A stretch of 5,189 nucleotides of DNA from a virus (taxonomy: Duplodnaviria; Heunggongvirae; Uroviricota; Caudoviricetes): the IMG/VR virus record IMGVR_UViG_2654587570_000012, one strand, 5' to 3'. Under the pieces are notes generated by a model, which saw nothing but the letters and a program-made list of their open reading frames with translations, ran no database searches and was not told the DNA's origin. Positions 1 to 5,107 of the stretch are shown here, piece after piece (the stretch's first letter is position 1; every line of letters starts with the position of its first letter). A program made the translations under genes and the position numbers.

Positions 1-1074
1 TCATTTGTCGATTTCAATTTTGTCCCATTCCCGTCCACGGCTGTCCCTATACCGCGCCGCCATTAAATCTGATTTATGCCCGAGAAGACGTTGAGCAAAC
101 TTATCGCCAATCTGGTTCCGGTATAGCCTCGCTGACAGGCTACGCAGTTCATGGAATGTTGGCGGGTTTCCATCAAATGAGAGTCCAGATGCATTTCTCG
201 CCTTTGTAAAATACTTTGATACTGTTTTCGGGGAAAGCGGATCGTGATGCTTTGATGCGATTATAGTTTCACTGCTGCTGGCCTCCCTGCATTTCTGTAG
301 TGTATCAGCCAATGAGATATTGAGCGCGTCAATCGTTAGCGTTAGCGGAATGGCGAGTTTAGCCCCTGTTTTACTCTGTTCAATGTGAAGATGGTTGTCG
401 TTTATGTCTGACCATTTCATTCTGCACAAATCGCCGACTCTCTGCCCTGTAACGACGGCCAAATCCATCGCCAGCCTTAGCCAGATAGGGAGAGGTTCGG
501 CTGCATGGTAAATCTCGACATACTCATTAGCTGTCAGCCTTGAGCGCCTTACTTCTGACTTTGCTGTACGGGTTGCTGTTACCGGATTCGTTGCAACATG
601 CCCCTCGGCTATTGCTTCACGAAAAACGTCAACAAGGGTTGACCTGATTAATTTTGCGGAAGCTGCTTTACCTTCTGCCACGTAGGTGTTTAGCATTGCT
701 GCCACTTCTTTCGTTGATATGTCAGTGAGCGGTTTGTCCGGCAATTTTCTTCGGATTGCCCTGATTTTGCTGGCGTAGTCGAGTAGAGTTTTCGGCCTGA
801 TCCCTCTTTCGGTGAGGATTCTTTCATATCGGTCAAGCCACACATGAAGAGTGATTGCGTCACCGCCTTTAATTCTGTCTATCAGTGATTTGCGTCCGCT
901 GTCTGAGAGTAACTCAATATTGGCCTGTATTGCTTCAGTGATTGCTATCCTCCTGTCTCGGCCTAATCCAAACTCTTTACCCGTCCTTGGGTCCCTGTAG
1001 CAGTAATATCCATTGTTTCTTATATAAAGGTTAGGGGGTAAATCCCGGCGCTCATGACTTCGCCTTCTTCCCAT
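1..1074 (-). CDS. int: Tyrosine site-specific integrase, lambda Int-like (357 aa, complete; stop at 1-3)
   Basis: Seen: complete 357-aa minus-strand ORF beginning MGRRRSHERRDLPPNLYIRNNGYYCYRDPRTGKEFGLGRDRRIAITEAIQANIEL and ending HELRSLSARLY...LLGHKSDLMAARYRDSRGREWDKIEIDK. Established knowledge: near-identical over long stretches to lambda Int as I recall it (356 aa), with the tyrosine-recombinase C-terminal box. The 23-nt overlap with xis matches lambda geometry. Confidence 0.95.
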   Translation of the reverse strand: MGRRRSHERRDLPPNLYIRNNGYYCYRDPRTGKEFGLGRDRRIAITEAIQANIELLSDSGRKSLIDRIKGGDAITLHVWLDRYERILTERGIRPKTLLDYASKIRAIRRKLPDKPLTDISTKEVAAMLNTYVAEGKAASAKLIRSTLVDVFREAIAEGHVATNPVTATRTAKSEVRRSRLTANEYVEIYHAAEPLPIWLRLAMDLAVVTGQRVGDLCRMKWSDINDNHLHIEQSKTGAKLAIPLTLTIDALNISLADTLQKCREASSSETIIASKHHDPLSPKTVSKYFTKARNASGLSFDGNPPTFHELRSLSARLYRNQIGDKFAQRLLGHKSDLMAARYRDSRGREWDKIEIDK

Positions 1075-1270
1075 TTCTGATCCTCTTCAAAAGGCTACCT
1101 GTTACTGGTCGATTTAAGTCAACCTTTACCGCTGATTCGTGGAACAGATACTCTCTGCCATCCTTAACCGGAGGAGGGAATATCCTGCATTCGCGCACCC
1201 ATCGACGAACTGTTTCAAGGCTTCTTGGGCGTCGCTGGCGAGCGTTCCACTCCTGAAGTGTCAAGTACAT
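1052..1270 (-). CDS. xis: Excisionase (lambda Xis-like, 72 aa)
   Basis: Seen: 72-aa ORF MYLTLQEWNARQRRPRSLETVRRWVRECRIFPPPVKDGREYLFHESAVKVDLNRPVTGSLLKRIRNGKKAKS overlapping the int start by 23 nt. Established knowledge: essentially the lambda Xis sequence and length as recalled. Confidence 0.93.
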   Translation of the reverse strand: MYLTLQEWNARQRRPRSLETVRRWVRECRIFPPPVKDGREYLFHESAVKVDLNRPVTGSLLKRIRNGKKAKS

Positions 1271-1296
1271 CGCAAAGTCTCCGCAATTACACGCAA
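1257..1296 (-). promoter_or_regulatory. pI-like cII-activated promoter: minus-strand TTGC-N6-TTGC (TTGC 1296-1293, GTGTAA, TTGC 1286-1283) plus a third TTGC at 1275-1272; predicted start site inside the xis 5' end
   Basis: Seen: plus strand reads gcaa-ttacac-gcaa at 1283-1296, i.e. TTGC-N6-TTGC on the minus strand just upstream of the xis ATG (1270). Established knowledge: cII-dependent lambda promoters carry TTGC-N6-TTGC flanking the -35 position, and pI initiates within xis so the transcript makes Int only. Inference: the -10 hexamer would fall near 1269-1262 and is poor, as expected for an activator-dependent promoter. Confidence 0.45.
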
Positions 1297-1297
1297 G

Positions 1298-1318
1298 AAA
1301 AAACCGCCATCAGGCGGC
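1298..1318 (-). terminator. Rho-independent terminator (minus strand): stem CCGCC/GGCGG (1304-1308 with 1313-1317), loop UGAU, then U6 (1303-1298)
   Basis: Seen: plus strand gaaaaaaccgccatcaggcggc; on minus-strand RNA this is a GC-only 5-bp stem followed directly by six U. The TGA stop of the 55-aa ORF lies in the loop. Confidence 0.6.
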
Positions 1319-1477
1319 TTGGTGTTCTTTCAGTTCTTCAATTCGAATATTGGTTACGTCTGCATGTGCTATCTGCGCCCACAGCATCCAGTGGTCATAG
1401 CAGTCGCTGATGTTCTCGGCTTCGATAACTCTGTTGAATGGTTCTCCATTCCATTCACCTGTAACTCGGAAGTGCAT
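1310..1477 (-). CDS. Small hypothetical protein (55 aa), at the position of the small ORF between xis and ea8.5 in lambda
   Basis: Seen: the ORF track omits it (below its size cutoff); manual minus-strand translation from ATG 1477-1475 gives MHFRVTGEWNGEPFNRVIEAENISDCYDHWMLWAQIAHADVTNIRIEELKEHQAA with TGA at 1312-1310. Established knowledge (recalled): lambda has a 168-nt ORF about 39 nt upstream of xis; the same 168-nt length and 39-nt gap are seen here. The Shine-Dalgarno is weak, so expression is uncertain. Confidence 0.45.
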   Translation of the reverse strand: MHFRVTGEWNGEPFNRVIEAENISDCYDHWMLWAQIAHADVTNIRIEELKEHQAA

Positions 1478-1490
1478 TTATCATCGCCAT

Positions 1491-1515
1491 AAAACAAAAC
1501 TCGCCGTAGCGAGTT
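1491..1515 (-). terminator. Rho-independent terminator (minus strand): stem AACUCGC/GCGAGUU (1498-1504 with 1509-1515), loop UACG, then U-rich tail (UUGUUUU)
   Basis: Seen: plus strand aaaacaaaactcgccgtagcgagtt; minus-strand RNA folds a 7-bp stem with 4-nt loop followed by a U-rich run, about 50 nt downstream of the ea8.5-like stop (1566). Confidence 0.6.
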
Positions 1516-1565
1516 CAGATAAAAGAAATCCCCGCGAGTGCGAGGATAGTTACTTGTTCATATTA

Positions 1566-1847
1566 TTAATCGTCAATGTATTTTGAGCATTGTGGGCAAT
1601 CATCGATCCCACAATACGATTCATATGCATCCTTTATTGCGTCGCGGGCTTCAGTAAGAGTATTGAATAAGTTGCAGCTATTATCTTTTTGATATAGGTT
1701 AGTTCCTAATTTATAAGCAGAAGAAGCATCATTTCCGCTGTCTAAAATTACATCGTTATGGATTCTGCACCTTGCAAGAACTCCTGATCCCATAAGGGTC
1801 TGCATAGCCCATTGCTCTTGATCTTCACACAAATCATGAATGCTCAT
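1566..1847 (-). CDS. ea8.5: Ea8.5-like small cysteine-rich protein (93 aa from ATG 1847)
   Basis: Seen: the track ORF 1566..1865 begins at a GTG; the in-frame ATG at 1847 is preceded by AAGAGAGGTG (good Shine-Dalgarno) and gives a 93-aa product MSIHDLCEDQEQWAMQTLMGSGVLARCRIHNDVILDSG...CGIDDCPQCSKYIDD. Inference: same length (282 nt) and position (first gene upstream of the xis-proximal small ORF) as lambda ea8.5; the family assignment rests on synteny and the Cys/His pattern, not a confirmed alignment. Confidence 0.6.
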   Translation of the reverse strand: MSIHDLCEDQEQWAMQTLMGSGVLARCRIHNDVILDSGNDASSAYKLGTNLYQKDNSCNLFNTLTEARDAIKDAYESYCGIDDCPQCSKYIDD

Positions 1848-1961
1848 TTCAACACCTCTCTTCACGTTTCACACACGTTAAGATTAACAGTGTTTTTACA
1901 TGCTTTGGAAGATTTATTTTATAAAAACTCTTTTAATACAAATAGATATAATAGTTCACTA

Positions 1962-2759
1962 TTATAGCTCCTTTAATCGAGGCGGTTCTGGTAGAGGCAT
2001 CCAGTGGGTTACACCGCCAATTGGCTCATCGTCGTCGTACTCCAATGCGGTTATATAGAACCCGTCACGACGAGAATAAGAAATCCCGGACATTACAATG
2101 CCATCCGAAACAACAATAATGTCACCCGTTTCTTTCGGCATTCGCTCACTACAGCTTATCCAACCATCCGGAGTCACCGGAAGCGAGAACGGCAGCACAT
2201 CTCTGTGAACAAGTTTTTGCTGTGACAGGTTATCCAGAACTTTCTGTACTGCTGCATCACCGAATACACCAAGCGCATCTGCCATAACTCCTACAACCTG
2301 ATAAGCCTCAGCGCATACCGTGGATAAACCATCCGGAATTACCGGAGAGTTGCCGGGTTCTTTAATGTGCAAGCGAGGCTCACCATCTTTTGGTTCAGGC
2401 CACTGGCGCTCCATGTTGATCTTCAATTTATCTTCCATAGCAGCGGTAATTTCAGCATCGCTGATGCCAGCACGGCGCTGTGCATCCCACAACAGGAAAT
2501 GCATATCAGCCCACTCGCTGAGATCGTCTGGTTCGGCTGCGGCTTCCAGAGCCTCTTTTGAGAGGTGTTTCAGTGGACCAATGGGGCCAACGCAGCCAAA
2601 TGTGGAGTCAGACCATTTGGCATGCTCGTGGCGAATCAGTTCGCGTTCCAGTGATGCCAGTGCAATTCGTGCCAGTTCCATTTGTTCGCCACGAGTAAGC
2701 CCGTTTTCAAGCGGATTTTTAATGAACAATTCAATACGTTCTTTGGTAATAGTGGTCAT
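1962..2759 (-). CDS. Two-domain cargo protein (265 aa): N-terminal MazG-like all-alpha NTP pyrophosphohydrolase (DUF550, dATP/dGTP diphosphohydrolase-type), C-terminal DUF551
   Basis: Seen: ATG at 2759 preceded by AAGGA (7-nt spacer); N-terminal half has the acidic pattern SKEALEAAAEPDDLSEWADMHFLLWDAQRRAGISDAEI (E-x2-E ... E-x2-D on consecutive helices); C-terminus ends GWISCSERMPKE...GVTHWMPLPEPPRLKEL. Established knowledge: E/D-rich helical motifs are typical of MazG-type pyrophosphohydrolases; the THWMPLPEPP tail is the DUF551 hallmark in lambdoid phage proteins. Domain names are from memory, not a search. Confidence 0.75.
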   Translation of the reverse strand: MTTITKERIELFIKNPLENGLTRGEQMELARIALASLERELIRHEHAKWSDSTFGCVGPIGPLKHLSKEALEAAAEPDDLSEWADMHFLLWDAQRRAGISDAEITAAMEDKLKINMERQWPEPKDGEPRLHIKEPGNSPVIPDGLSTVCAEAYQVVGVMADALGVFGDAAVQKVLDNLSQQKLVHRDVLPFSLPVTPDGWISCSERMPKETGDIIVVSDGIVMSGISYSRRDGFYITALEYDDDEPIGGVTHWMPLPEPPRLKEL

Positions 2760-2769
2760 TTGTTAGTCC

Positions 2770-3525
2770 TTAAAGTGCTAGTTGCAATTGCATTTCAAAG
2801 CGGTCGCGTTGTTCACAATACGCAAGAGAACCAGGGCTATTGTGTGCCTCAATCCGTTCTACCATTAATGCTGCGCGTGTCTCTTTACTTGCAGGTGCAT
2901 AAGCCCCAGACCAGGCTTTATCAATACCGATGTTTCGAGCGACGTTCGTACTATCTGCGCTGGCTAAGGGTAATTTTGTGAATATCAGCGGATTTAACAT
3001 GCGCAATCCATGTAGTTTCGTAACCGGCTGACCATGCCCATCAACAATGTGACGAATCAGGTCTTTCATTCTGGCTACCGCAAGAGTTGGGCGCTTTACG
3101 TCATAGTCGCCACAACTACCGATAGCCACTCGCGGAAACTCATTGCACAAATGAATAAATCGCTCGTCACTTTCATTCATGTGCCACACTGGAACGCCAG
3201 CTAGTTTTCCGTGAGGCCACTCATTCAGAAGCGCATCATTTTCCTCCTCTCCGCCATCAATAACATCCGGGATAATGGCAAAATCGAATCCTGGGTGATT
3301 CTTCCAGCGAGCAACAAACTCGTAGTAATCGCTCCAGTCGATTTTGTTTTTGCCAGCTGCTTTCCAGGCGGTGAATGCACCGTTGTCCAGCGCGAACGAC
3401 TGACAGTATTCAGCCGCGAGATTGATCTGGCCTGAATGCGCAAAACTGATAAACGCATGTCGCCCTTTCCATGCTCTCATTGCGCACGTATCAGGAGTAA
3501 TAGGCCCACCGTGGTAGTGAATCAT
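2770..3525 (-). CDS. tRNA-guanine-transglycosylase (TGT)-like catalytic-core protein lacking the zinc subdomain; candidate DpdA-type 7-deazaguanine DNA transglycosylase (251 aa)
   Basis: Seen: start chosen at ATG 3525 (AAAGGAG Shine-Dalgarno; TGAgATG coupling to the ea22-like stop) rather than the track's ATG 3567, which overlaps ea22 by 41 nt. Motifs that line up in order with bacterial TGT as I recall it: LDNGAF (res 46-51) vs TDSGGF; FAIIPD (res 82-88) vs MIFDEC; VAIGSCGD vs YAVGGLAVGE; ASADSTNVARN (res 188-198) vs DCVMPTRNARN. The protein stops about 50 aa after the ARN motif, so the Cys/His zinc site is absent. Inference: TGT-superfamily enzyme, most plausibly DpdA-like; motif-level only. 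Confidence 0.55.
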   Translation of the reverse strand: MIHYHGGPITPDTCAMRAWKGRHAFISFAHSGQINLAAEYCQSFALDNGAFTAWKAAGKNKIDWSDYYEFVARWKNHPGFDFAIIPDVIDGGEEENDALLNEWPHGKLAGVPVWHMNESDERFIHLCNEFPRVAIGSCGDYDVKRPTLAVARMKDLIRHIVDGHGQPVTKLHGLRMLNPLIFTKLPLASADSTNVARNIGIDKAWSGAYAPASKETRAALMVERIEAHNSPGSLAYCEQRDRFEMQLQLAL

Positions 3526-3526
3526 C

Positions 3527-3934
3527 TCACTCTCCTTTGATGCGAATGCCAGTAGCGCGGATTGCATCGATGACTTCAGAAACTTTGTATGCCATTACCG
3601 TTTGGTAATCATCGTGAAAATCTGTTCGATGAAGCATGCTGCTACGTTCCGGGAGCAGTATTTCCCGCGCTTCCAGTTCTGCAATGCGCTTTTTTGCTGC
3701 TTCCAGTTCATCCAGTAATTCCAGCACGGTAGCCGGATTAGCCTTGGCAACAAAATCCCGGACTGGCTTACAATCAATCTCCGCAATGGGTTGATACGAT
3801 GTGTAGCCATGCTGTCTTGTATAACTACCGTGACGAATAACGAAAAAATCACCATTTATTTTTTTAGCCTGCCACTTATCTTCACCGGCTTTCTCTGCCG
3901 CTTCACGCAGTGCCTGAGAGTTAATTTCGCTCAC
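3527..3934 (-). CDS. ea22: Ead/Ea22-like protein (135 aa, GTG start)
   Basis: Seen: GTG start at 3934 with AGAGAGG Shine-Dalgarno 6 nt upstream and GTGA overlap with the upstream stop; N-terminus MSEINSQALREAAEKAGEDKWQ...INGDFFVIRHG and a coiled-coil segment LELLDELEAAKKRIAELEAR. Established knowledge: a conserved QALREAAEKA-type N-terminus with a variable middle is typical of ead/Ea22-family proteins. Shorter than lambda Ea22 (182 aa). Confidence 0.7.
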   Translation of the reverse strand: MSEINSQALREAAEKAGEDKWQAKKINGDFFVIRHGSYTRQHGYTSYQPIAEIDCKPVRDFVAKANPATVLELLDELEAAKKRIAELEAREILLPERSSMLHRTDFHDDYQTVMAYKVSEVIDAIRATGIRIKGE

Positions 3935-4152
3935 TTCGAACCTCTCTGTTTACTGATAAGCTCCAGATCCTCCTGGCAACTTGCACAAGTCCGACAACCC
4001 TGAACGACCAGGCGTCTTCGTTCATCTATGGGATCGCCACACTCACAACAATGAGTGGCGGATATAGTCTGGTAGTTCAGACGACGCATTTTTATTGCTG
4101 TATTGCGCTGTAATTCTTCAATTTCTGATGCTGAATCAATGATGTCCGCCAT
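3931..4152 (-). CDS. TraR/DksA-family C4 zinc-finger protein (73 aa), at the lambda orf73 position
   Basis: Seen: MADIIDSASEIEELQRNTAIKMRRLNYQTISATHCCECGDPIDERRRLVVQGCRTCASCQEDLE with the C-x2-C ... C-x2-C spacing of TraR/DksA C4 fingers; its stop overlaps the ea22-like GTG. Established knowledge: lambda carries a 73-aa TraR homolog in the exo-xis region that acts on host RNA polymerase. Confidence 0.75.
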   Translation of the reverse strand: MADIIDSASEIEELQRNTAIKMRRLNYQTISATHCCECGDPIDERRRLVVQGCRTCASCQEDLELISKQRGSK

Positions 4153-4204
4153 CTTTCATTAATCCCTGAATTGTTGGTTAATACGCTTGAGGGTAAATGC
4201 GAAT

Positions 4205-4228
4205 AATAAAAAAGGAGCCTGTAGCTCC
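4205..4228 (-). terminator. Rho-independent terminator (minus strand): stem GGAGC/GCUCC (4214-4218 with 4224-4228), 5-nt loop, then UUUUUUAUUAUU
   Basis: Seen: plus strand aataataaaaaaggagcctgtagctccct; on minus-strand RNA a GC-rich 5-bp stem is followed immediately by a long U-rich tract, about 20 nt downstream of the 4251 stop. Confidence 0.5.
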
Positions 4229-4250
4229 CTGATGATTTTGCTTTTCATGT

Positions 4251-4532
4251 TCACCGTTCCTTAAAAACGCCGTTTAACATGCCGATTGCCAGGCTTAAAT
4301 GAGTCGGTGTGAATCCCATCAGCGTTACCGTTTCGCGGTGCTTCTTCAGTACGCTACGGCAAATGTCATCGACGTTTTTATCCGGAAACTGCTGTCTGGC
4401 TTTTTTGATTTCAGAATTAGCCTGACGGGCAATACTGCGAAGGGCGTTTTCCTGCTGAGGTGTCACTGAACAAGCCCCATGTCGGCAAGCATAAGCACAC
4501 AGAATATGAAGCCCGCTGCCAGAAAAATGCAT
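4251..4532 (-). CDS. Hypothetical protein (93 aa as drawn) in the position of lambda orf61; start uncertain
   Basis: Seen: ORF MHFSGSGLHILCAYACRHGACSVTPQQENALRSIARQANSEIKKARQQFPDKNVDDICRSVLKKHRETVTLMGFTPTHLSLAIGMLNGVFKER. No convincing Shine-Dalgarno before ATG 4532 (AACCACTGA-ATG). An in-frame ATG at 4562 (good lambda-like 20-nt overlap with orf63) is cut by TGA after 9 codons. Size differs from lambda orf61 (61 aa), so the call is positional only. Confidence 0.4.
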   Translation of the reverse strand: MHFSGSGLHILCAYACRHGACSVTPQQENALRSIARQANSEIKKARQQFPDKNVDDICRSVLKKHRETVTLMGFTPTHLSLAIGMLNGVFKER

Positions 4533-4542
4533 TCAGTGGTTG

Positions 4543-4734
4543 TCATACCTGGTCTCTTTCATCTGCTTCTGCTTTCGCCACCATCATTTCCAGCTTTTGT
4601 GAAAGGGATGTGGCTAACGTATGAAATTCTTCGTCTGTTTCTACTGGTATTGGCACAAACCTGACTCCAATTTGAGCAAGGCTATGTGCCATCTCAATAC
4701 TCGTTCTTAACTCAACAGGAGATGCTTTGTGCAT
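4543..4734 (-). CDS. orf63: Orf63-like small protein (63 aa)
   Basis: Seen: [63 protein letters not shown]; GGGAGG Shine-Dalgarno 4 nt upstream of ATG 4734; 28-nt overlap with orf60a. Established knowledge: identical length (192 nt) and overlap geometry to lambda orf63 as recalled. Confidence 0.65.
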   Translation of the reverse strand: MHKASPVELRTSIEMAHSLAQIGVRFVPIPVETDEEFHTLATSLSQKLEMMVAKAEADERDQV

Positions 4735-4889
4735 ACCGCCTCCCGTTTATTATTTATCTTCTCAGCCAGCCGCTGTGCTTTCAGTGGATTTCTGATAACA
4801 GAAAGGCCGGGAAATACCCAGCCTCGCTTTGTAACGGAGTAGACGAAAGTGATCGCGCCTACCCGGATATTATCGTGAGGATGCGTCAT
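4707..4889 (-). CDS. orf60a: Orf60a-like small protein (60 aa from ATG 4889)
   Basis: Seen: ATG 4889-4887 overlaps the exo-frame TGA (4888-4886) as ATGA, with GGGGAG 8 nt upstream; product [60 protein letters not shown]. The track's ATG at 4895 is only 2 nt from the Shine-Dalgarno and is rejected. Established knowledge: same 183-nt length and ATGA junction with exo as lambda orf60a. Confidence 0.65.
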
Positions 4890-5107
4890 CGCCATTGCTC
4901 CCCAAATACAAAACCAATTTCAGCCAGTGCCTCGTCCATTTTTTCGATGAACTCCGGCACCATCTCGTCAAAACTCGCCATGTACTTTTCATCCCGCTCA
5001 ACCACGACATAATGCAGTCCTTCACGCTTCATACGCGGGTCATAGTTGGCAAAGTACCAGGCATCTTTTCGTGTCACCCACATGCTGTACTGCGGTAATG
5101 ACTCCAA
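4886..5107 (-). pseudogene. exo: 3' remnant of lambda-type exonuclease gene exo (last ~65 codons only)
   Basis: Seen: translation ...[68 protein letters not shown]; the track's M is a TTG at 5107 with no Shine-Dalgarno; in this frame upstream there are TAA and TGA stops within 40 nt. Established knowledge: this is the C-terminal tail of lambda Exo as I recall it (...[67 protein letters not shown]). Similarity begins near 5090; sequence upstream is unrelated. Confidence 0.6.

Follow-up and report, generated by a model that had tools for sequence, protein, structure and literature searches.

The exo-xis part of the pL operon has been described in phages lambda, phi24B and 933W (Bloch 2013, 2014; Donaldson 2021), in which the gene block orf60a-orf63-orf61-orf73-ea22 is accompanied by a predicted promoter, p1, and by predicted terminators. 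Five of these, t1-t5, are predicted for lambda, and t1 and t2 are predicted for phi24B too (Bloch et al. 2014, PMC4195576). Another described arrangement is the early-left region of the Salmonella phage BTP1, in which an Ea22-like gene (gp24) is followed by genes annotated as 'queuine tRNA-ribosyltransferase' (gp23) and EaA/DUF550 (gp22). BTP1 is one of 76 phages reported to 'encode DpdA but no G+ or preQ0 biosynthesis protein' (Hutinet 2019); SPN3UB, HK106, SEN1, SE131, 7-11 and PEAT2 are others. Here we analysed a 5,189-nt stretch of DNA, IMG/VR record IMGVR_UViG_2654587570_000012, which is called the window below as a whole. It spans one end of a lambda-like E. coli prophage, from int to the start of exo; the integrase is of the HK022 type, and all genes of the window are on the minus strand. 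Between ea22 and ea8.5, which adjoin in lambda, the window contains two extra genes at 1962-3525, encoding a TGT/DpdA-like protein and an EaA-like protein. The region is probably an ordinary mosaic in the exo-xis ('ea') section, a non-essential one, of the leftward early (pL) operon, with cargo genes that would be read through from pL during lytic growth.

As shown by blastn, window positions 1-1612 matched lambda 27809-29420 at 78.5% identity and positions 3893-5093 matched lambda 30354-31555 at 97%. The second match comprised the conserved orf60a-orf63-orf61-orf73-ea22 block downstream of exo. Lambda homology stopped at 1612, inside ea8.5, and resumed at 3893; a perfect 29-nt lambda island was found at 3524-3552, in the last codons at the 3′ end of ea22. 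The initial annotation of this DNA had placed a 1.56-kb insertion, 1962-3525, exactly at the ea22/ea8.5 boundary. The upstream junction at 3525 was indeed exact, and the downstream junction at 1962 was set by gene order only. The non-lambda stretch was 1613-3892 and reached beyond the proposed block; replaced alleles make up the core of ea22 and most of ea8.5. Only the first ~14 and the last ~9 codons of the ea22-like gene were lambda-like, and its product was shorter than that of lambda ea22 (135 versus 182 aa), as had been noted before. The window shares the gene block, the predicted t1-t5 and p1 with lambda, phi24B and 933W. In contrast to these phages, its variable set consists of the DpdA-like gene, the EaA-like gene and a diverged ea8.5, its ea22 core is a different and shorter allele, and its orf61 homologue encodes 93 aa.

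The five genes from orf73 to ea8.5 were as tightly packed as the initial annotation had described. The orf73 and ea22-like genes overlapped by 4 nt, a single nucleotide separated the ea22 stop from the ATG of the DpdA-like gene (at 3525), and the DpdA-like and EaA-like genes were 10 nt apart. An AT-rich spacer of 114 nt (27% GC) was located between the EaA-like gene and the ATG of ea8.5 (at 1847). The labels given to the five genes (orf73, ea22-like, TGT-like, DUF551-containing and ea8.5) agreed with their Pfam, NCBIfam and PHROG matches, which are listed in Table 1.

On the coding strand, the junction behind ea22 reads ...ATC AAA GGA GAG TGA G ATG A.... The linker at 3522-3550 contains the last ea22 codons with a Shine-Dalgarno sequence (AAAGGAGAG), then the TGA stop codon, a single base and the ATG start codon of the next gene. 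Exact matches of this 29-mer were found in at least 120 IMG/VR contigs. Among the matches listed, which also gave the counts that follow, 70 distinct 429-nt contexts were 100% conserved in the island, with a majority-base frequency of ~50% directly outside it. The upstream 100 nt fell into 9 clusters, representing ea22 alleles, and the downstream 100 nt into at least 11 clusters; the linker ATG opened a reading frame in 10 of 11 downstream clusters. In the 112 contigs that extended 300 nt or more downstream of the linker, the next gene was the DpdA-like gene in 31, an EaA-type DUF550 gene in ~18, a lambda-type ea8.5 in 4 and another DUF551-containing gene in ~52. The gene after the DpdA-like gene also varied, since phage S107 shared only the DpdA-like gene and the first ~38 codons of the next open reading frame (ORF) with the window. 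The slot is truly variable because at least 11 different sequences were found behind the linker in IMG/VR contigs, and the two extra genes are absent from lambda; on this point the initial annotation, which had spoken of a known variable slot, was right. Mosaicism at short conserved linkers is the subject of the modular theory of lambdoid phages, and the pattern found here is a classic example of it. The backbone genes orf60a, orf63, orf61, orf73, the ends of ea22, orf55 and xis, together with lambda t1-t5, would frame the swap zone. Homologous recombination at the 29-nt linker would plug in cargo genes to be translated right behind ea22, and translation of the DpdA-like gene may be coupled to that of ea22.

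The DpdA-like gene was found in 201 of 5426 complete E. coli genomes (~4%), Shiga toxin-producing E. coli lineages included. The DUF550 part was found at full length in 400 and the whole segment 1200-4400 in 78 of the same genomes. The two genes are not part of a conserved backbone, in keeping with the initial annotation; the DpdA-like and EaA-like genes are optional cargo directly behind ea22. The segment was split by an IS2/IS3 insertion sequence in many genomes of avian-pathogenic and O121 strains (e.g. E. coli APEC O78, NC_020163), so that it matched in two pieces across ~4.5 kb. The closest full prophage was that of E. coli UTAK-6 (NZ_CP157151, locus coordinates 18802-43072), located beside torS. 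Its DpdA-like gene and exo were frameshifted, and an IS3 element interrupted a replication gene.

A moron, in the sense of Juhala and Hendrix, is an autonomous insert of promoter, gene and terminator. Like morons, the two genes at 1962-3525 are additions that separate a pair of genes adjoining in a related phage, and the initial annotation had regarded them as a moron-type insertion. Unlike morons, they showed no promoter or terminator of their own, no compositional contrast and no sign of expression in a lysogen. A consensus scan detected no sigma-70-like site on the whole minus strand of the window, and under lenient criteria 0 promoter sites were found on this strand against 3.3 ± 1.7 in block shuffles. 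On both strands together 3 promoter-like sites were counted against 8.4 ± 2.9, and promoter-like sequences look depleted in the operon segment. No hairpin was found after the EaA-like stop; the nearest terminators, 3′ of ea8.5, are lambda t3/t4. The GC content of 1962-3525 was 0.489 versus 0.457 in the rest of the window, and its GC content at third codon positions was 0.45 versus 0.40-0.51 in the flanking genes. A compositionally foreign block was ruled out by these ordinary values. Expression above 100 transcripts per million in the BTP1 lysogen was seen for bstA, cI, pid, gtrC and gtrA alone, and the DpdA and EaA genes were not among them. The block is translationally nested behind ea22. 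None of these tests favours an autonomous unit, those for promoter and terminator being consensus scans and that of BTP1 expression holding by analogy. Of the earlier interpretation, optional cargo in a variable slot is supported, but a terminator-bounded cassette and a moron-type insertion are not.

In base composition, the ea8.5 gene and its upstream spacer (1566-1961) stood out from the rest of the window, and the tandem hairpins t3/t4 are located directly 3′ of them. The GC content was 0.39 (0.387) for ea8.5, the product of which had 41% amino acid identity to lambda Ea8.5, and 0.272 for the spacer. No promoter was found in the spacer by the consensus scan, and the spacer folded no better than its shuffles (z = 0.31). 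An Rfam scan of the window returned no Rfam family, only a chance miRNA match in this spacer. If any part of the window has a moron-like layout, it is the unit 1566-1961 rather than 1962-3525.

Terminator-like sites were more frequent in the window than expected (15 versus 5.3 ± 2.2). Convincing minus-strand hairpins were located at 4825-4803, 4230-4212, 1547-1528, 1516-1497 and 1320-1301, with folding z values of -2.6 to -3.9. These five hairpins are the predicted t1-t5 of lambda, identical or with small base differences (Bloch 2014, PMC4195576). The hairpin at 4212-4230 was identical in sequence to t2 in Table 4 of PMC4195576, was located within the 97% lambda-identical block and overlapped the BPROM-predicted promoter p1. 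With their GC-rich hairpins and U-tracts, t2-t4 of the window match what is expected of rho-independent terminators and are predicted to act as such; the drop in lambda mRNA after t2, seen by quantitative reverse-transcription PCR, supports this. The initial annotation had described a terminator-bounded cassette with hairpins at 4205-4228 and 1491-1515. Both hairpins were real and mapped to 4212-4230 and 1497-1516, but the stronger one at 1528-1547 had been missed. The bounding hairpins are t2 and t3/t4 of lambda/phi24B. They are features of the backbone and not of an insertion, because lambda, without the cargo, has the same hairpins flanking orf73-ea22-ea8.5.

Hairpins on both sides of the segment could also mean that orf73 to ea8.5 is an insulated unit, which starts at p1, stops at t3/t4, is expressed in the prophage without pL and benefits the lysogen as in lysogenic conversion. 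BPROM places p1 at the same spot in lambda and phi24B, and in H2O2-induced phi24B the mRNA levels of orf73 and ea22 were above those of upstream genes. We consider such a unit unlikely. As a real promoter, p1 in the window is weak by consensus: its -35 hexamer matched at 3/6 positions, its spacer is 21 nt, and it failed even the lenient criteria. Lambda, which has no cargo, contains this p1 and t2-t4 as well, so they are not part of the insertion. The GC content of the cargo is ordinary, and the BTP1 homologues were not among the expressed accessory loci of the lysogen. Quantitative reverse-transcription PCR of lambda mRNA showed orf73, ea22 and ea8.5 at lower, not higher, levels than the genes upstream of t2 (Bloch 2014). 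In the mosaic that we prefer, N-antiterminated read-through from pL would express the cargo after infection or induction, and not in the lysogen.

The first cargo gene, next to ea22, encodes a protein in which a fold search found a TGT-type (beta/alpha)8 barrel. Its motifs are LD47NGAF51, H172-G173 and SAD191S, and D47, H172, S189, D191 and S192 were invariant in 46 homologues of 33-55% identity. A profile built from this 46-member family was aligned to the genetically validated CAjan DpdA by hhalign with 99% probability (E = 8e-18, 176 columns), and BLASTP gave E = 3e-9. The aligned motifs were LD(N/S)GAF, KLH(G/A) and S(A/C)DS, CAjan having LDSGAF, KLHA and SCDS. In the structure of bacterial DpdA (7ui4), Asp95 is the general acid/base, with Phe99, His181-Gly182 and the nucleophile Asp256. 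The window motifs fit D95/F99, H181-G182 and D256, a correspondence by motif and not by superposition. Searches of PDB sequences with the protein and with the 46-member profile returned nothing meaningful. The window protein resembles CAjan, 9g (Hutinet 2019, 2023) and bacterial DpdA in its TIM barrel and in the D...F, HG and S-x-D-S motifs. Unlike them, it is a singleton, with folE, queC, queD and queE not nearby, and unlike bacterial DpdA it has no large Ins8 domain in its 251 aa.

No folE, queD, queE or queC gene was found in the window or within 20 kb in the UTAK-6 prophage. Because no preQ0 biosynthesis genes stand alongside it, the DpdA-like gene is a 'singleton' (group 3 of Hutinet), and by homology the protein belongs to the 'singleton' phage DpdA group of Hutinet 2019. 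Within this group it falls in the gamma-proteobacterial cluster, the function of which was left open by Hutinet 2019. The authors noted that DpdA-only phages could rely on host preQ0 and that this cluster may have diverged in function. The gene was found in 108 phage records, mostly of Vibrio and Salmonella phages. Amino acid identity by tblastn was 92.8% for BTP1, SPN3UB and S107, 68% for SfI and 36-38% for HK106, 7-11 and MED16. Against BTP1, dN was 0.044 and dS ~2 (dN/dS = 0.02); given this strong purifying selection, the DpdA-like gene is a maintained, functional gene. The BTP1 early-left region has the same gene order as the window and the same 10-nt gap before EaA. It differs in its P22-like backbone (erf, abc and a different int/xis), in an EaA of 321 aa with a different C-terminus, and in an ASCH gene in place of ea8.5 as the next gene. 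A literature search for the BTP1 locus tag STMMW_03391 returned nothing. The components of the region and its variability are all known from publications or routine annotation, and the same three genes occur together in BTP1.

The surroundings of the DpdA-like family suggest a role on DNA. In 78 species-level loci, the 145 immediate neighbours included, as raw counts, 21 DNA methyltransferases (N6_N4_Mtase, C5 DNA_methylase, Dam, D12 and MT-A70 types), 2 QueC, 5 PAPS-reductase-like proteins and replication genes. It is improbable that the protein acts instead on tRNA or on protein, by a Cap10-like conjugation of nucleobase to protein, or serves as a counter-defence decoy, in either case without DNA modification. 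The cluster's possible divergence in function would leave room for such a role, but the profile homology to the DNA-modifying CAjan DpdA speaks for DNA, direct tblastn matches reach MED16 and 7-11, the PADLOC models did not match the protein, and its neighbours are often DNA methyltransferases and replication genes. Deletion of dpdA in CAjan abolishes dPreQ0, and 9g DpdA alone, expressed in E. coli, gave 790 dPreQ0 per 10^6 nt in plasmid DNA.

E. coli supplies preQ0. The DpdA-like enzyme of the window may swap guanine in DNA for this host-made preQ0 or a derivative, which would give partial protection from restriction. We put forward tentatively that, in temperate lambdoid and P22-like phages, a compact singleton DpdA hijacks host preQ0 to mark phage DNA with 7-deazaguanine at a low level, possibly at specific motifs, during lytic growth, an anti-restriction trait swapped as a plug-in at the ea22 linker. 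A bolder version of this proposal has the neighbouring DUF550 purine-deoxynucleoside triphosphate (dNTP) pyrophosphatase assist the trait.

Several points weigh against our reading of the locus. Transcription independent of pL is conceivable, given the published prediction of p1 upstream of orf73 and the high levels of orf73/ea22 mRNA after H2O2 induction of phi24B. The IMG/VR architecture counts are not independent events, because many of the contigs are near-identical E. coli prophages. Phage 7-11, which has a singleton DpdA, contained only 50 dADG per 10^6 nt, and Orion, another singleton-DpdA phage, showed no DNA modification, but its host makes no preQ0. The DpdA-like protein was unmatched in Pfam, NCBIfam and PADLOC, even at E = 10; this null is uninformative, because Pfam also misses CAjan DpdA.

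The extra genes are not an autonomous moron but cargo plugged in at a defined junction for recombination and translation coupling, and the main gain is a tidier annotation. The biological interest is in the singleton DpdA clade, which is under strong purifying selection and present in ~4% of complete E. coli genomes and in Salmonella BTP1. If phage DNA is modified with host preQ0, 7-deazaguanine modification would reach beyond virulent phages and include common temperate and Stx-type prophages, with consequences for restriction evasion and horizontal transfer.

The second cargo gene encodes an EaA-like protein, a very common E. coli prophage protein with homologues named DUF550 or EaA/Eaa. It is composed of an N-terminal shuffled module of ~45 aa, a PF04447 (formerly DUF550) domain and a C-terminal DUF551. 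The PF04447 match scored 141.4 bits against a Pfam gathering cut-off of 23 and covered 96 of 97 profile positions. PF04447 is named after the dATP/dGTP pyrophosphohydrolase of the Z-genome phage SH-Ab 15497, the activity being known for that fusion protein only. The window protein shares the Pfam family with this MazZ-type enzyme. In contrast to it, the window protein belongs to the P22 EaA type, stands without a PurZ/DatZ context and is fused to DUF551, not to DUF5664. The predicted structure had a predicted local distance difference test (pLDDT) score of 42 with a shallow alignment, and a search of PDB sequences with the protein was empty. The EaA-like protein may hydrolyse dATP/dGTP to monophosphates. 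The N-terminal ~45 codons (2625-2759) matched different PHROGs (3323, 10451 and 660), and this module is common to S107 and several IMG/VR contigs with a different downstream domain. In the UTAK-6 annotation by the Prokaryotic Genome Annotation Pipeline, the N-terminal stretch is a separate partial pseudogene and the DUF550 protein starts further in.

Since base replacement in Z-genome phages involves DUF550 enzymes, the two cargo genes might be one two-enzyme module that moves as a unit and couples purine-dNTP hydrolysis to guanine exchange or 7-deazaguanine handling. The same order and 10-nt gap occur in E. coli, BTP1 and S107. A Yersinia enterocolitica prophage (three loci) has a stand-alone PF04447 gene (165 aa, 3004-3501) directly upstream of a DpdA-like gene (3501-4256); in this pair stop and start overlap, and the order is opposite to that in the window. 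We regard such a module as very improbable. DUF550 was never an immediate neighbour of the DpdA-like gene in the 78 species-level loci and was within 5 kb in only 3 of them. In S107 the 'EaA' gene lacks DUF550 and has just its first ~38 codons in common with that of the window, SfI and HK106 have DpdA without DUF550, and among the IMG/VR matches listed DpdA was followed by non-DUF550 genes in several architectures. DUF550 was found in 509 phage records, mostly of virulent Klebsiella phages and largely other phages than the 108 with the DpdA-like gene, which are mostly Vibrio and Salmonella phages. An obligate pair of DpdA-like and DUF550 genes was ruled out by the neighbourhood counts. We regard the pairing in the window as co-residence in an accessory region, because DUF550 was never adjacent in 78 diverse loci, and within the mosaic the two enzymes would act independently. 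Higher up in its pL operon, the UTAK-6 prophage also encodes an 'Nmad5 family putative nucleotide modification protein' (locus 26427-27050), so that this operon may contain a second gene for nucleic-acid modification.

Table 1. Positions of genes, hairpins and other features in the window, with the matches on which the assignments are based.
Feature	Position	Strand	Match or value
int	1-1074	-	
xis	1052-1270	-	
orf55	1310-1477	-	
t4-equivalent, second hairpin of tandem pair (predicted)	1497-1516	-	-11.9 kcal/mol, z = -3.1
t3-equivalent hairpin directly 3′ of ea8.5 (predicted)	1528-1547	-	-12.1 kcal/mol, z = -3.9
ea8.5-like, diverged allele, 93 aa	1566-1847	-	PF20735 (Lambda_ea8_5) E = 4e-16; phrog_6325 E = 3e-56
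AT-rich spacer before ea8.5, 27% GC	1848-1961	-	
EaA-like, 265 aa	1962-2759	-	PF04447 E = 1e-41; PF04448 (DUF551) E = 8e-14
TGT/DpdA-like, 251 aa	2770-3525	-	phrog_887 'queuine tRNA-ribosyltransferase' E = 2e-103
Conserved 29-nt linker, module-swap junction	3522-3550	-	exact matches in at least 120 IMG/VR contigs
ea22-like, chimeric allele, 135 aa	3527-3934	-	PF13935 (Ead_Ea22) E = 3e-17; phrog_1667
orf73, TraR/DksA-type zinc finger	3931-4152	-	PF01258 (zf-dskA_traR) E = 8e-9; TIGR02419 E = 2e-14; phrog_54
t2-equivalent hairpin between orf61 homologue and orf73 (predicted)	4212-4230	-	-10.2 kcal/mol, z = -2.6 vs shuffles
orf61 homologue, 93 aa	4251-4532	-	
orf63	4543-4734	-	
orf60a	4707-4895	-	
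exo, start only	after orf60a	-	

The domain search also found DUF1382 and DUF1317 domains among the window proteins. Two database records bearing on these comparisons probably reflect contamination or a wrong label. The record 'Staphylococcus phage SA 1298 Kay' (OR850331, 1.7 kb) encodes a Salmonella-type DpdA-like protein with 92.8% amino acid identity, and 'Campylobacter phage CJLB-4' (MW057783) matched the window over the same stretches and with the same identity as lambda. The orf61 homologue matched phrog_303 over 93 of 101 positions. Around 4395, a run of A7 in the window stands against A8 in the lambda reference; this difference shifts the frame, and the lambda product is shortened to 61 aa. 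Because of this shift, lambda 'orf61' looks like a truncated form of the family.

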